Shown here: positions 144 through 7,575 of the stretch, in pieces
How positions within the stretch are numbered: the stretch's first letter is position 1
Layout: the number at the start of each line of letters is the position of its first letter
Source of the DNA: Escherichia coli
GTDB taxonomy: Bacteria > Pseudomonadota > Gammaproteobacteria > Enterobacterales > Enterobacteriaceae
DNA length: 16,740 nt
Direction: 5' to 3' (one strand)
NCBI RefSeq assembly: GCF_003334385.1
Contig: NZ_QOWN01000063.1
Translations under genes and position numbers: made by a program
Notes under the pieces: generated by a model
The model's database searches: none
What the model saw: the letters and a program-made list of their open reading frames with translations, nothing else
What the model was told of the DNA's origin: nothing

Positions 144-698
144 ATGCTTATTGGCTATGTACGTGTGTCAACAAATGACCAGAACACAGATCTACAACGT
201 AATGCGCTGAACTGTGCAGGATGCGAGCTGATTTTTGAAGACAAGATAAGCGGTACAAAGTCCGAAAGGCCGGGACTGAAAAAACTGCTCAGGACATTAT
301 CGGCAGGTGACACTCTGGTTGTCTGGAAACTGGATCGGCTGGGGCGCAGTATGCGGCATCTGGTCATTCTGGTTGAGGAGTTGCGCGAACGTGGCGTTAA
401 TTTTCGCAGCCTGACGGATGCTATTGATACCAGTACCCCAATGGGGCGCTTTTTCTTTCATGTGATGGGGGCCCTGGCTGAAATGGAACGAGAACTGATT
501 GTTGAACGAACAAAAGCTGGACTGGAAGCTGCTCGCGCACAGGGACGAATTGGTGGACGTCGTCCCAAACTTACACCAGAACAATGGGCGCAGGCCGGAC
601 GATTAATTGCAGCAGGAATTCCTCGCCAGAAGGTGGCGATCATCTATGATGTTGGTGTATCGACACTGTATAAGAAGTTTCCGGCCGGAGATAAATGA
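144..698 (+). CDS. pin: Serine recombinase, Pin/Gin/Hin/Cin-family DNA invertase (184 aa)
   Basis: ATG at 144. N-terminal catalytic motif MLIGYVRVSTNDQ with the nucleophilic Ser, a resolvase/invertase core (DTLVVWKLDRLGRS) and a C-terminal HTH (VAIIYDVGVSTLYKK). Length and sequence are closely similar to PinE/Gin as recalled. Confidence 0.9.
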   Translation: MLIGYVRVSTNDQNTDLQRNALNCAGCELIFEDKISGTKSERPGLKKLLRTLSAGDTLVVWKLDRLGRSMRHLVILVEELRERGVNFRSLTDAIDTSTPMGRFFFHVMGALAEMERELIVERTKAGLEAARAQGRIGGRRPKLTPEQWAQAGRLIAAGIPRQKVAIIYDVGVSTLYKKFPAGDK

Positions 699-755: not shown

Positions 756-1625
<870 letters not shown>

Positions 1626-1709
1626 CTAACCCTTTGAATTTACATAGCGCAAAAAGATACCTTTCCTCATAATGTGAGCTAATTTTATGTTTCGTTTGAT
1701 GATCGGGTC

Positions 1710-1770
1710 GGTCTCGAAAACCGGAGTAGGGGCAACTCTACCGGGGGTTCAAATCCCCCTCTCTCCGCCA
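1710..1770 (+). pseudogene. tRNA-Ser(CGA) 3' fragment (serU-like; anticodon arm, long variable arm, T-arm, acceptor 3' strand and CCA), att-remnant-like
   Basis: GGTCTCGAAAACCGGAGTAGGGGCAACTCTACCGGGGGTTCAAATCCCCCTCTCTCCGCCA matches the 3' two-thirds of a class II tRNA-Ser with anticodon CGA. No 5' acceptor strand (GGAGAGA) is present upstream, so it is a fragment, not a gene. Confidence 0.6.
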
Positions 1771-2352
1771 CTTTATCAATGACTTATCTCCTGACTTCCC
1801 GCCTTGCTTTTCCTAAACAGAACAATCGTAGAATATTCTTGAAGGGTTAGATCGTCACTGTTTTCTGTTCGATACTGTGACATTCAGCACTTGATTCGCT
1901 ATGGATCTGACAGGAAGGTTTTGAGCGAAAATCTGCAGTTATTCAGTCGTTTTCTTATCGGTCACCATTATTCTTTTAGACATTGATCCTACAAAGCTGC
2001 CGCAAAGTTGGTGGTGGGAACTGAAGTTGCGTAGAGAAGGGGTCAATACCCGGAGGCAAACATGGGCTGGCAAAAGTGTAGCGGCATTAGGCGCAGCTAT
2101 TTAGCCTAGTTATGTTTTATGAAAACTTGATATCATATAAGTGTCTTACTTATTGGCTGTAAATAAGTTTTTCCTAAGGAATTGTTTCTTGAGTATCATT
2201 TGTAACTGTAACGGAATTTATAATCCTTTGCTTTATTGTTACGGTATTTTTTATCACACCCTATTTTTAGTGGTTTTTTATACTGAAGTTTGGCAAAGTG
2301 AACTTTATATACATATACTTCATCCTGGTTTCAGTTAAATTGGGTGGATGAT

Positions 2353-3096
2353 ATGGCAACTACATGTTCAGTTATATTGATTTTGGAGTCCTTTGATGTT
2401 TATTTCGGAAAAGAGAGTGTGTTTCTGGAGAGAGGTTCATCTGTACTTGTCGACTCTAGCTCTAGAGATTTTTTCCTGACATATCCTGAAAGAGTGATAG
2501 TGGCGGATTTTGGCGCTGAGTTTATTAGTCGCTATTTGAAAGCTAATAACTTAAGGGATATTTCTGATTGTAGGGAATATCCATCTTATTTAAAAATAAA
2601 CTTTGCTGACTTCAGTTTAATTAAAGGATTAATTAGTTGGGCTAATCACTGTGCTGAATACATAGAAATTTTTGATGAGTCTATTGCTTTTACATGTCTC
2701 TCTGCATTTTCTTCTGAAAAACAATTTGGAGTATTTCTGTTTGGATGTTTGAAAAGCACAGGGGCTAAAGTTAAAACGATTATTCATACGGATTTATCTG
2801 CACCATGGCGTCTTAAGGATATATCATCAAGATTATATCTCAGCGAAAGTTTACTAAAGAGGAAATTGAAAGAAGAGGGGGTATCATTCAGTAAGATCAT
2901 ACTTGATGAGAGGATGCAAATGGCTGAATATTTACTCAGCACTCGTTGTTATCCTATTAGTAAAGTAGCTAAGGTCTGTGGTTATGCCAGTGTCTCATAC
3001 TTTACTTATGTATTTAGACGTTATTTTGGTGTTTCTCCAAGTCAATACTCTCAGAGGAGTTCAGAAAGTAAAATTCTTACTCACCAGGGAATCTGA
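2353..3096 (+). CDS. AraC/XylS-family transcriptional regulator (Rns/AggR/ToxT-like size, about 247 aa) in AT-rich DNA
   Basis: C-terminal double HTH typical of AraC family (WRLKDISSRLYLSESLLKRKLKEEGVSFSKI...VAKVCGYASVSYFTYVFRRYFGVSPSQY). Strongly AT-rich codon usage unlike the flanking core genes. The ORF track starts at GTG 2344; the first ATG is at 2353 with a GGGTGG purine tract upstream. Confidence 0.75.
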   Translation: MATTCSVILILESFDVYFGKESVFLERGSSVLVDSSSRDFFLTYPERVIVADFGAEFISRYLKANNLRDISDCREYPSYLKINFADFSLIKGLISWANHCAEYIEIFDESIAFTCLSAFSSEKQFGVFLFGCLKSTGAKVKTIIHTDLSAPWRLKDISSRLYLSESLLKRKLKEEGVSFSKIILDERMQMAEYLLSTRCYPISKVAKVCGYASVSYFTYVFRRYFGVSPSQYSQRSSESKILTHQGI

Positions 3097-3100
3097 TCAT

Positions 3101-3600
3101 TGTTCTTGCCCCCTTATTTCCAGACAGGGGGTGTATCTTAAGTTAACGTTACCCGCTGACGTCGATATTCTCGCGGAGAGCGATAACCCAACGCACTGTG
3201 CGGATGGTGTTCATTGTAATGTTCGATCGCCACTGCAAGATTATGCAATGCCGTTCTTACATTCGGTTTCGGCATGAACGCGATGTAGTCTTCCTTCATC
3301 GTTTTCACGAACCTTTCTGCAATTCCATTACTCTGAGGACTGCTGATTGCCGTTGTGCAGGGCTCCAGATTCAACTCTCTGGCGAACTGCCGTGTTTCAT
3401 GCGCTCTATACGCTGAACCGTTATCTGTCAGCCACTGGATGGACTGTTCCGGTACTTTATCGCCGAAGCGTTTTTCTATCGCTCCTAACATGACATCCTG
3501 CACTGTCGCTTTATCGTAACCTCCCGTGCTTGCGGCCCAGTCTATGGCTTCACGATCGCAACAGTCCAGGGCGATTCATCTGGGCCAATCCTCGCTCATA
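3101..3600 (-). mobile_element. Truncated IS3-family (IS2-group) insertion sequence remnant
   Basis: Terminal sequence TGTTCTTGCCCCCTTATTTCCAGACAGG at 3101-3128 resembles the IS2 inverted-repeat end (TGGATTTGCCCCTATATTTCCAGACATC as recalled). It is followed by the C-terminal part of an IS2 InsD-like transposase. The inner boundary is uncertain and no second terminal repeat was identified. Confidence 0.65.
3138..3575 (-). pseudogene. IS2 InsD-like (IS3 family OrfB) transposase, C-terminal fragment only
   Basis: Translation ...[31 protein letters not shown]...[51 protein letters not shown]...[18 protein letters not shown] has the DDE-core C-terminal signature of IS2-type transposases. The frame is closed by a stop at 3576-3578; the N-terminal half and the OrfA gene are absent. 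Confidence 0.7.
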
Positions 3601-3850
3601 ACAGGCATTCACTTCAGTCATGGCAGAAAGGTATGCATGCTGGAGAAGTCGTGAAAGAAAAGAAGACTGCTGCGCCGTTTGTCGTCACGTTTATCTTCAT
3701 TGGCTATGCAAGTCGTAATACAAGGTGGGACAAAACTGAGACACATAAGGCCTCGCAATGGCTTGCAAGGCTTTACATGTTTTGATGTGGTGGGACGTGT
3801 GAGCGCAGTGTTGATGGGGTAATGCTTTGAATTAGAAGCGGATTCTTATA

Positions 3851-3895
3851 ATTCGTAATGCGAAGGTCGTAGGTTCGACTCCTATTATCGCACCA
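3851..3895 (+). pseudogene. ptwF: tRNA-Thr(CGU) 3' fragment (thrW-like; corresponds to the ptwF pseudo-tRNA of K-12), island right-end att remnant
   Basis: ATTCGTAATGCGAAGGTCGTAGGTTCGACTCCTATTATCG-CACCA matches tRNA-Thr from the anticodon loop (CGT) to CCA with one G missing near the 3' end. No 5' half is present. It lies immediately before the core yagP-pao genes. Confidence 0.7.
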
Positions 3896-4021
3896 TTAAA
3901 ATCAAAGAGTTACCCCATATTTAAATACACCACGTTTCCTCCTGTGCCGTATTTGTGCCATTGTAACCTTGGCAATTCATCAAAATACTGTTCTGACATC
4001 AGGCAGTGCAGGTGCAGACAT

Positions 4022-4432
4022 TTAAGCCAATTGCTGCCGCCATTCTTTGACGTAGTCAATCAGGGCGCGGAGCTTTGGTGCAATATTGCGACGCTGTGGG
4101 AAATACAGATAGAAGCCCGGAAATTGTGGAAGAAAGTCATCAAGCAGCGATACAAGCTTACCGCTTTCAATATATGGCCTGAAAGTTTCCTGAGTGGCAA
4201 TTGTTATTCCTCCGCCGGCAAGAGCCAGCCTCAACATCAGACGCAGATCATTAGTCGTAATCTGCGGTTCAATCGCAAGGTCGAAAGTTCTCCCGTTTTC
4301 TTCAAATGGCCAGCGATAAGGCGCAACCTCCGGGGACTGACGCCAGCCGATACACTTATGGGTATTTCCCCCGGAGGCGAGAAAGCGCTCTCCACGCCCG
4401 GCCGCAAGGATCAGGACGACGGGGGCAGGCAT
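4022..4432 (-). pseudogene. yagP: LysR-family regulator remnant, C-terminal effector-binding portion only (136 aa)
   Basis: Translation from the internal ATG at 4432 gives 136 aa with a LysR C-terminal domain signature (...GGGITIATQETFRPYIESGKLVSLLDDFLPQFPGFYLYFPQRRNIAPKLRALIDYV). No HTH domain is present. Its 5' end overlaps the paoD stop region (4411-4432). Position and length match K-12 yagP. Confidence 0.6.
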
Positions 4433-5376: not shown

Positions 5377-7575
5377 TTAAACCACATCCGGCAGCTTATC
5401 GAGCAGCTTATCCAGAGTGATGGGATAATCCCGTACCCGAATACCGGTGGCGTTATACACCGCGTTGGCGATAGCCGCGCTCACGCCGCACAGGCCCAGC
5501 TCACCGACACCTTTGGCCTTCATCGGGGAGGATATGGGGTCGGTATCATCCAGGAAAATCACCTCCTGTTTTGGGATATCCGCATGAACCGGCACCTCAT
5601 ACCCCGCCATATCGTGATTAACGAAGTAGCCCAAACGGTCATCCACCGCCAGCTCCTCCATCAGTGCCGCGCCCATGCCCATAGTCATTGCGCCAATGAC
5701 CTGGCTGCGCGCAGTTTTCGGATTCAGGATGCGTCCTGCAGCACACACAGCGAGCATACGCCGGACCCGAACTTCTCCCGTCGCGCTATGCACGCCGACC
5801 TCCACAAAATGCCCGGCAAAGGTCGACTGCTGGTACTCTTTGCTCAGTGTTCCGAATTCAATGCTCTCTTCCGCTGTCAGTCTGCCGCCTGCGGTGGCTT
5901 CATGTAGCGTGGCGCTTCGGGTACCGTTGGTAATCTTGCCGTCGGCAAACTGCGACTGCTCAGGATCAAACCCGACTGCCGAGGCAATCATTTCGCGAAG
6001 CTTCATACAGGCGGCGTAAACGCCGGAGGTGGAGGTATTCGCGCCCCATTGTCCACCAGAACCCGCAGAAACCGGGAAACTGGAATCGCCGAGGTGAACC
6101 GCAACCTGCTCCAGCGGTACGCCAAGCATTTCCGCTGCCGTCTGGGCCAGAATGGTGTAGCTGCCGGTGCCAATGTCGGTCATGTCCGTTTCTACGGTAA
6201 CGGTGCCGTTTTGTTCGAGGTGAACCCGAGCACCCGATTTTTCCAGCAGATTATTGCGAAAGCCCGCCGCAACACCGTGGCCGACTAGCCACTCCCCGTC
6301 GCGCACCTGTCCGGGTGTGGCGTTGCGCTGCTTCCAGCCAAATTTATCCGCTCCGGTGCGCAAGCACTCGATAAGCTGACGGCGAGAGAAGCAGCGCGTC
6401 GGGTCGGCGGGGTCAACCTGAGTGTCATTCAGGATGCGAAACTCGACGGGATCGATGCCCGCTTTTTCCGCCAGTTCGTCGATCGCGATTTCGAGCGCCA
6501 TCAGACCGGGGGCTTCGCCGGGCGCACGCATGGCGTTCCCTTCCGGCAAATCAAGCGTGGCGAGCCGCAGGCCGGTATGACGATTCGCCCCGGCGTAGAG
6601 TAATTCGCTTTGCTGTACCGCCGTTTCCGGCGTGCCGCCGGGCAGGTTTCCAGACCAGCTTTCATGTGAGATAGCGGTGATTTTCCCGCTCTGGTCGGCA
6701 CCGATACGCAAGTGCTGAAGGGTGGCGGGGCGGTGCGTGGTGTTATTGGGAATAGAGGGGCGGGGGAGCATCACTTTAACCGGACGTTTCACCGCTCGGG
6801 CGGCGAGGGCCGCCAGCAGCGCATCGCTTCTCAGGAACAGCTTGCCGCCAAACCCTCCGCCGATATACGGGGAGATAATACGCACATTCTCCACGGGAAC
6901 TTTCAGCGTTTTTGCCAGATCGGTGCGGCACCAGTCAATCATCTGATTTGAGGTCCAGAGGGTAAGCTTATTTCCATCCCAGACGGCCATCGAGGCATGC
7001 GGCTCCATCGCCATATGGCTCTGGTCCGGGGTCGTGTAGGTAGCATCAATCTTCACCGCAGCGGAGGTGAAAGCCCCGTCAAAGTCACCGACGTTTTTGT
7101 CGGGCGTGTCTTCCGGCGGCTGATTGACGGCCTGTTTTTCGTCCGCCAGGGAGTAAGCTCCTTTATTACGGCGATAGTGTGCCTGCACCAGCGAGGCCGC
7201 CGCTCGCGCCTGTTCGAAGGTCTCGGCCACTACCAGCGCAATGGCCTGATGATAGTGCTCAATAGTGGGGCCGCCTAACAGCCTGGCGGTGTTTTTGTCG
7301 CCTTTGCCGAGTGCCCCGGCGTTACTGGCGGTAATGACAGCCAGTACGCCCGGCGCTTTTTGCGCGGCGTCCGTATCAAGGGCGGTGAGGCGTCCTTTGG
7401 CAATGGCGGAACCGACGATATAGCCATAGGCGGCGTTGGGGGCTTCTTCATGCCATTCGTAGGCGTAGCGTGCCGTGCCGGTAGTTTTCAGCGGTCCGTC
7501 GATGCGGTCATGGGGACGACCGACAACCTTCAGCTGATCGATCGGGTTTTCCCCTGCGGGTTTATCAAATTTCAT
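5377..7575 (-). CDS. paoC: Aldehyde oxidoreductase molybdopterin-binding large subunit (732 aa)
   Basis: 732-aa xanthine dehydrogenase-family molybdenum subunit ([21 protein letters not shown]...; GGGFGGK motif). Start ATG overlaps the paoB stop as ATGA at 7572-7575. Confidence 0.95.

Follow-up and report, generated by a model that had tools for sequence, protein, structure and literature searches.

Displaced tRNA fragments at the ends of prophages, mosaic b regions in lambdoid phages and host DNA captured in the manner of transducing phages are all established. For the lambda-bio specialised transducing phages, such capture is described by the Campbell model of aberrant excision, and a hybrid att junction together with adjacent host DNA in a phage genome is the signature of aberrant excision of the lambda-bio type. 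Among phages integrated at tRNA genes, the genuine serU prophages of Escherichia coli (MB15, LT-IIb) possess the intact serU at their integrase end and a displaced copy of nucleotides 25 or 29 to 90 at their tail-fibre end, and serU-specific phages were shown to recombine in the anticodon arm of serU. The complete prophage of strain MB15 is bordered on one side by mtfA, the intact serU and the integrase, and on the other side by tail fibres, pinE, a GIY-YIG gene, the serU fragment (serU', nt 25-90) and yodB; this native arrangement of the serU'-yodB junction was found in four genomes.

A further described system is the prophage Sp1/CP-933H of O157:H7, in which pinE, the GIY-YIG gene, serU', its flank, an IS630 remnant, an AraC-family gene, an IS fragment and a fragment of thrW (thrW') follow each other in the same order, and with 99% identity, as in the locus studied here. 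Sp1/CP-933H is reduced to about 10 kb and has a P4-like element in tandem, whereas thrW' of our locus abuts the chromosome directly. Literature searches retrieved no paper describing the serU fragment in Sp1/CP-933H or in lambda-like phages.

The window, i.e., the whole stretch of 16,740 nucleotides analysed here, stems from the chromosome of E. coli, where it covers the surroundings of thrW. Its closest genome is that of strain 2824 (99.2-99.6% identical), from which the attL end of the thrW element was taken, the window ending short of it. In strain 2824, the left end consists of proA, thrW and a tyrosine integrase, followed by a lambdoid prophage of about 41 kb; onward lie an invertible tail-fibre segment, pinE, the GIY-YIG gene, serU', the AraC-family gene and an IS3-family fragment, and the right end comprises thrW', a truncated LysR-family gene of yagP type, paoDCBA, yagU, ykgJ and ecp. 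Near the start of ecpB, the best-matching E. coli genomes all cease to match at 16668, leaving some 72 bases at the end of the window (16669-16740) uncovered. The sole RNA match at gathering level in the window is a full-length Rfam IS009 (RF02111; 10219-10415 on the plus strand; 182.5 bits, E=2.7e-44), which, according to the annotation of strain 2824, lies across the 3' end of yagU and the spacer between this gene and ykgJ.

A first-pass annotation, made from the letters of the window alone, had noticed a 3' fragment of tRNA-Ser(CGA) and, 2.1 kb to the right, one of tRNA-Thr(CGU), and had interpreted both as remnants left by tRNA-targeting integrases. Both fragments are real, and the alignments agree with their position on the plus strand and with the lack of their 5' halves, ARAGORN having found no tRNA genes in the whole window. 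The interpretation as att-type remnants is likewise upheld, the one by its likeness to a serU prophage attR, the other by that to a thrW attR of SfV type; the relation of the two to the locus turned out to be a different one for each.

Concerning the thrW fragment, nucleotides 31-76 of the tRNA gene are found at 3851-3895 (+), with the anticodon CGT at 3854-3856 and one G deleted from the 3' acceptor strand. In the alignment to thrW of strain 2824, identity extends about 18 bp past the tRNA end, such that the core of the local attR, i.e., the 46-nt tRNA part with its 1-nt deletion plus the 18-bp extension, covers 3851-3913 (+). It is preceded by the P arm of an attP of the thrW-specific SfV/SfI/SfII/SfIV type (3726-3850, +; 94.7-96.8% identical to the attP regions of those phages), and the joint region 3726-3913 is 94.7% identical to the attP region of SfV, the range among SfV, SfI, SfII and SfIV being 94.7-96.8%. 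Equally to the thrW attRs of SfI, SfV, SfII and P22, thrW' combines the 46-nt core and an SfV-type P arm with a chromosomal boundary and a yagP-type neighbour, namely the truncated LysR-family pseudogene at 4023-4361 (-), annotated in strain 2824, which is the first chromosomal feature to the right of the attR. From these attR cores it differs by the one deleted base, a difference limited to thrW'. At the other end of the element in strain 2824, an intact thrW is accompanied by an SfV-type integrase, with int and xis 97% identical to SfV int-xis. Hence, thrW' is the ordinary local attR of a thrW prophage, and for the closest genome the integration in thrW of an SfV-type phage carrying the cargo described below is shown. 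The equivalent fragment in K-12 is ptwF of CP4-6. The core corresponds to the 46-nt thrW core published for SfI, SfV, SfII, SfX and P22 (PMC3636060).

The missing G at 3889-3891 changes ATCGGCACCA to ATCGCACCA with regard to thrW, to strain 2824 and to the published 46-nt SfI core; the thrW' copy of strain a7 (L005 8453-8497) also exhibits a single gap. The O157:H7 sequence follows that of the window up to 3896 and then enters its next tandem element. In the O157:H7 strain 10671 (L013 18044-30219), a P4-like satellite with int, an ABC-three-component system, ogr/delta, psu and primase genes is situated in tandem after thrW' of Sp1, and a third copy of thrW' precedes the LysR gene, and in strain N9 this point is taken by a different element, likewise equipped with an ABC-three-component system. 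Furthermore, the record of phage phi458, designated as complete and circular (OP434518.1, 44008-44418; L018 2990-3440), contains a thrW attR made up of the P arm and the intact 46-nt core; beyond it, no fewer than 107 bp coincide exactly with the flank on the yagP side of the chromosome (window 3914-4020), and a tail-assembly gene comes next. Phi458 represents either a second capture of host flank or a prophage record with misjudged ends.

The serU fragment is identical in 62 of 62 positions to nucleotides 29-90 of K-12 serU (BLAST, E=9e-31) and occupies 1709-1770 (+). It spans the region from the second base of the anticodon stem over the anticodon loop (anticodon CGA at 1715-1717), the long variable arm and the T arm through CCA, and constitutes the core of a fossil attR. 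Since 1698-1708 resemble serU only partly, its start had to be shifted from 1701, where it had originally been placed, to 1709. Nucleotides 1-28 of serU are missing in the alignment, and without the 5' half no cloverleaf is possible. A permissive Rfam scan yielded tRNA-like matches at 1689-1767 that were all below threshold, including one that resembles tRNA-Sec (27.5 bits, compared with a gathering score of 47). A functional tRNA-Ser gene, i.e., a paralogue of serU, is ruled out by these results together with that of ARAGORN. The fragment is a non-working tRNA and marks no integration event at the thrW locus. On the opposite strand, 1716-1767 (-) matches the Rfam family Plastid-psbl-rps4 3'UTR (40.9 bits, E=1.4e-6, gathering score 68), which is read as a by-product of tRNA-Ser-like sequence in that plastid family and not as a real element.

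To the left of the fragment, 16-2048 of the window are colinear, with 94.8% identity, with the right end of the serU prophage of MB15. This part contains a pinE-type serine DNA invertase gene at 144-698 (+), identified by the RefSeq annotation of strain 2824 (99.6%), by the NCBIfam serine-recombinase model and by the colinearity with MB15, and a LEM-3-like GIY-YIG domain gene at 756-1529 (-), annotated in strain 2824, which is the last gene of the prophage right arm and directly precedes serU' also at the native serU locus of MB15. Between this gene and the fragment lies the phage-side (P) arm of a serU-type attachment site (1530-1708, +), the same sequence preceding serU' in MB15 and in GF130. 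Because of this colinearity, 1530-2048 can be identified as a genuine serU attR with its host flank that was moved to the thrW locus. The e14-like prophage of MB15 and SerU-LTIIb (KU052038) exhibit the same 62-66-nt 3' segment of serU in their attR, beginning in the anticodon arm, and in KU052038 it is annotated as a tRNA-Ser pseudogene. The likeness thus comprises an exact copy of the tRNA 3' part, serU-prophage DNA on its 5' side and serU-downstream chromosome on its 3' side. An attP in place of an attR was ruled out, as chromosomal flank follows 3' of serU' and no int comes after it. In contrast to native serU prophages, the element in the window lacks the partner attL and a serU-type integrase: in strain 2824, no intact serU with a serU-type integrase was found at the same element, and a short-word BLAST with serU detected no second serU repeat in the whole thrW prophage. 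Hence, of the matching direct repeats that might delimit the two supposed elements, the pair thrW and thrW' was found in strain 2824, but serU' has no counterpart, and a nested element would have no partner site.

No close genome matches bases 1-15 of the window, and 16-86 have a further match in strain a7, where they are inverted (L005 3588-3518). This fits a window that begins at the border of the tail-fibre segment inverted by Pin, with the segment present in its alternative orientation. In the ssrA prophage of AR_0081 (L004 7010-7028) and in the thrW prophage of a7 (L005 around 7010-7030), at positions equivalent to 1698-1726 of the window, the GIY-YIG modules retain only a serU-like anticodon arm of 18-19 nt, CGGTCTCGAAAACCG, plus partial similarity on the 5' side; thereafter both diverge from the window into a common sequence, GTAGNCAC..ATATGC. 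This remnant may stem from recombination at a secondary site, or it may be an attP that has degraded.

The identity to the serU locus does not end with the tRNA but, according to the alignment to K-12, runs 278 bp further (1771-2048, +) into the serU-yodB intergenic region, a feature missed in the first-pass annotation. This DNA adjoins serU in 5405 of 5426 complete E. coli genomes, with 96-99% identity, and is situated beside serU also in prophage-free serU loci, e.g., in K-12. As integration at thrW cannot yield a flank of serU, these 278 bp argue against a local integration of a serU element. At 2048 the match breaks off sharply and is followed by the last 56 bp of an IS630-type element (2049-2104, +), which matches the right end of IS630 on pINV and is cut internally at 2049. 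No microhomology is found at this point; 2048/2049 is an illegitimate joint between the serU flank and the IS630 end. Thus, unlike in a native serU attR, the junction in the window is not situated at serU and has only 278 bp of flank before the IS630 remnant begins. At the native serU attR of GF130 (L006 9001-10141), the flank extends some 448 bp beyond serU' up to a junction near zinT, and yodB is deleted beside the prophage end. The captured copies are uniform: without exception they have the joint at 2048/2049 and identical breakpoints of the IS630 remnant, and their SNPs at 1918-1996 form a single haplotype, which differs from the native flanks of MB15, of the LT-IIb strain and of K-12. 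Neither a full-length IS630 beside patE nor an unoccupied native serU followed by the IS630 remnant and patE occurs in any of the 5426 complete genomes, so that the joint is known solely from b regions of phages and prophages.

Downstream of the IS630 remnant follow a region of low GC content (2105-2352) and a gene for an AraC-family regulator at 2353-3096 (+), identified by annotation and NCBIfam, whose protein has its best NCBIfam matches with YdeO and GadX, both below the cut-offs. The gene is embedded in DNA of 30-36% GC. Since the Sp1/CP-933H locus of O157:H7 holds a single AraC gene, equivalent to 2353-3096, the latter presumably represents patE of that prophage. In a passage of PMC11879457 that cites Bender et al. 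2012, PatE is reported as a CP-933H-encoded activator of acid resistance. Next to patE, a 3' fragment of an IS3-family (IS2 InsD-like) transposase gene is found at 3101-3574 (-), annotated as a partial "integrase core domain" pseudogene. It had been proposed that the serU fragment delimits the pin/GIY-YIG module from the AraC/IS segment; a mosaic boundary does exist at 1708/1709, but the fragment has no direct contact with the AraC gene, as the flank (1771-2048) and the IS630 remnant (2049-2104) lie in between.

The nature of this boundary becomes apparent from phages. In mEp332, a plaque-forming lambdoid phage (PMC3442831), in ev099 and in PhiR70_1, 1708-3574 of the window is present with 98.7-99.3% identity, and identity ends at 3574, the right end of the shared block. 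All three have the block in the b region, behind the genes for the side tail fibres, and the genome records contain the hybrid att junction together with contiguous host DNA. In ev099, it is situated upstream of a lambda attP core, int and xis, a region 96.9% identical to that of lambda. To the right of 1708/1709, the window and ev099 or mEp332 are about 99% identical, whereas to the left they are unrelated: the window, MB15 and GF130 possess the GIY-YIG-type left arm, whereas ev099 and mEp332 possess a second type, whose counterpart is the attR arm of SerU-LTIIb. Each of these unrelated arms joins the block precisely where the serU core begins, and both of them occur at native serU. The attRs of serU prophages thus provide both left arms (the MB15 type in the window, the LT-IIb type in ev099), with the same 278 bp of chromosome on the right. 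No discriminating SNPs are found in 1709-1917, such that the crossover cannot be placed.

Concerning its distribution, at least 80% of 1772-3110 is present in 542 of 5426 genomes, and the whole arrangement from pin to thrW' in 371 genomes, O157:H7 included; the ev099-type junction is carried by 101 E. coli genomes. In total, these genomes contain about 640 copies of the block. In APEC O78 and ACN002, defective prophages adjoining ybhB-bioA, i.e., situated at att-lambda, have the block at their right end; these prophages presumably possess a lambda-type integration module. The block is always found together with patE. Carriers keep an intact native serU locus, with the flank consequently at two places per genome, and no phage was found that joins the block with a serU-type integrase. 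Sequence comparison shows the block as a passenger of the b region, which is non-essential, in lambdoid genomes with other integration modules, of which there are at least two, one of lambda type and one of SfV/P22 type.

Taken together, serU' is very probably the fossil attR of a serU phage, accompanied by 278 bp of serU-downstream chromosome and imported to thrW as cargo of a phage; import by a phage is indicated by the same block and breakpoints in free lambdoid phages and at att-lambda. An ancestral phage lysogenic in serU would have left its attR beside the serU-downstream chromosome. In one lysogen, the chromosome 278 bp past serU would then have been joined illegitimately to a point inside an IS630 next to patE, and this joint most likely arose by an aberrant excision of lambda-bio type, which would have put the attR and the host flank inside the phage genome. 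In the simplest reading, capture happened once, and afterwards the left arm was traded with a serU prophage residing in the host, by a crossover either within the 340 bp that both have in common or at the core. Finally, as the closest genome shows, a phage with an SfV-type integrase carrying the cargo integrated in thrW and thereby produced the local thrW' attR 2.1 kb to the right.

Aberrant excision is the capture mechanism that we prefer. Like the lambda-bio phages, the phages with the block possess a hybrid att junction and adjoining bacterial DNA in a genome that is still packageable and viable; unlike them, they carry only 278 bp of non-coding host DNA, and a module of lambda or SfV type has taken the place of the original integrase module, which hides the loss of phage DNA at the opposite prophage end that such an excision predicts. 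Instead of excision, an IS-associated rearrangement in the prophage state is possible, given the IS fragments at both ends of patE.

Since two left arms are joined at the core of one haplotype, one may ask whether the fragment has any role at present. It may have a passive one, as 340 bp of serU-locus homology plus a retained integrase core site. Beyond this, the core and the homology might constitute a portable cassette by which lambdoid phages with unrelated integrases swap their tail-fibre/pin/GIY-YIG arms with serU prophages, depending on RecA or on the serU integrase, an idea that we consider unlikely. If it were true, the two left arms would be traces of its use, and the cassette could allow entry at serU without an integrase of the phage's own or provoke thrW-serU inversions.

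Unlikely, too, is an origin of the arrangement in the chromosome, either by homologous recombination between related serU and thrW prophages (in inverted orientation) or by an IS630/IS3 rearrangement, which would have transferred the right arm of the serU prophage, attR and flank included, to another prophage, with phages acquiring the block later by ordinary recombination with prophages. It could account for the fragments of IS630 and of an IS3-family element on the two sides of patE, the two left arms demonstrate that homologous or site-specific exchange did happen at the block, and long homologies are common to lambdoid prophages at different sites. However, the native serU locus is intact in carriers, in addition to the second copy of the flank, no genome keeps an intermediate, and the block is present in genomes derived from virions; moreover, the internally cut 56 bp of IS630 without microhomology are unlike a recombination between two IS copies. 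The suggestion that the two fragments were brought together by recombination between islands holds insofar as recombination is the nearest of the options named, but it concerned phages and not islands.

Retention of serU' for a function, be it as a small RNA or decoy, as a terminator or insulator, as a part of the control of patE, or as a portable homology or att cassette, seems very improbable. The copies in the window, strain 2824, O157, ev099 and PhiR70_1 are free of substitutions over all 62 nt, two different arms are joined exactly to this core, and the block is frequent and constantly accompanied by patE. Yet a flank divergence of about 1% predicts no changes in 62 nt anyway, so that this conservation provides no signal of selection, mEp332 has lost or changed the first two bases of the core, and the frequency is explained by hitch-hiking with patE. 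A scan for terminators and promoters around the fragment revealed no terminator-like site at or just after serU', and the sole promoter-like site before patE (2290-2319) lies outside the captured DNA. With neither a 5' half nor a cloverleaf, and considering tRNA folding, the terminator and promoter scan and conservation together, no signs of a function of serU' were found.

The nested or serial integration put forward in the first-pass annotation, i.e., a serU-specific element inserted at or into the thrW island at a serU-like secondary site, with serU' as its far end, is hardly credible: the fragment does have the anatomy of an attR with the phage arm on its left, tandem elements occur at thrW (e.g., Sp1 and the P4-like Sp2 in O157:H7) and the fossil retains a complete anticodon stem-loop core as a target in principle, but between thrW and thrW' the closest genome contains neither a second serU repeat nor a serU-type integrase, the ends of its prophage are an SfV-type attL (thrW and int) and an SfV-type attR instead of serU-type ends, the 278 bp of serU-locus chromosome cannot arrive by integration, and the identical block with identical breakpoints is found in free phages and at att-lambda.

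The phage-borne fossil attR requires no new biology. It provides a natural example of temperate phages that retain a hybrid attachment site together with a piece of host chromosome, passed among phages of three integration specificities (serU, att-lambda and thrW). Consequently, a tRNA fragment within an island is no sure sign of an integration boundary at that place, and procedures that delimit islands by tRNA repeats would mis-split this locus, Sp1/CP-933H included. In this way patE, a regulator of acid resistance, travels as phage cargo with a chimeric upstream region.
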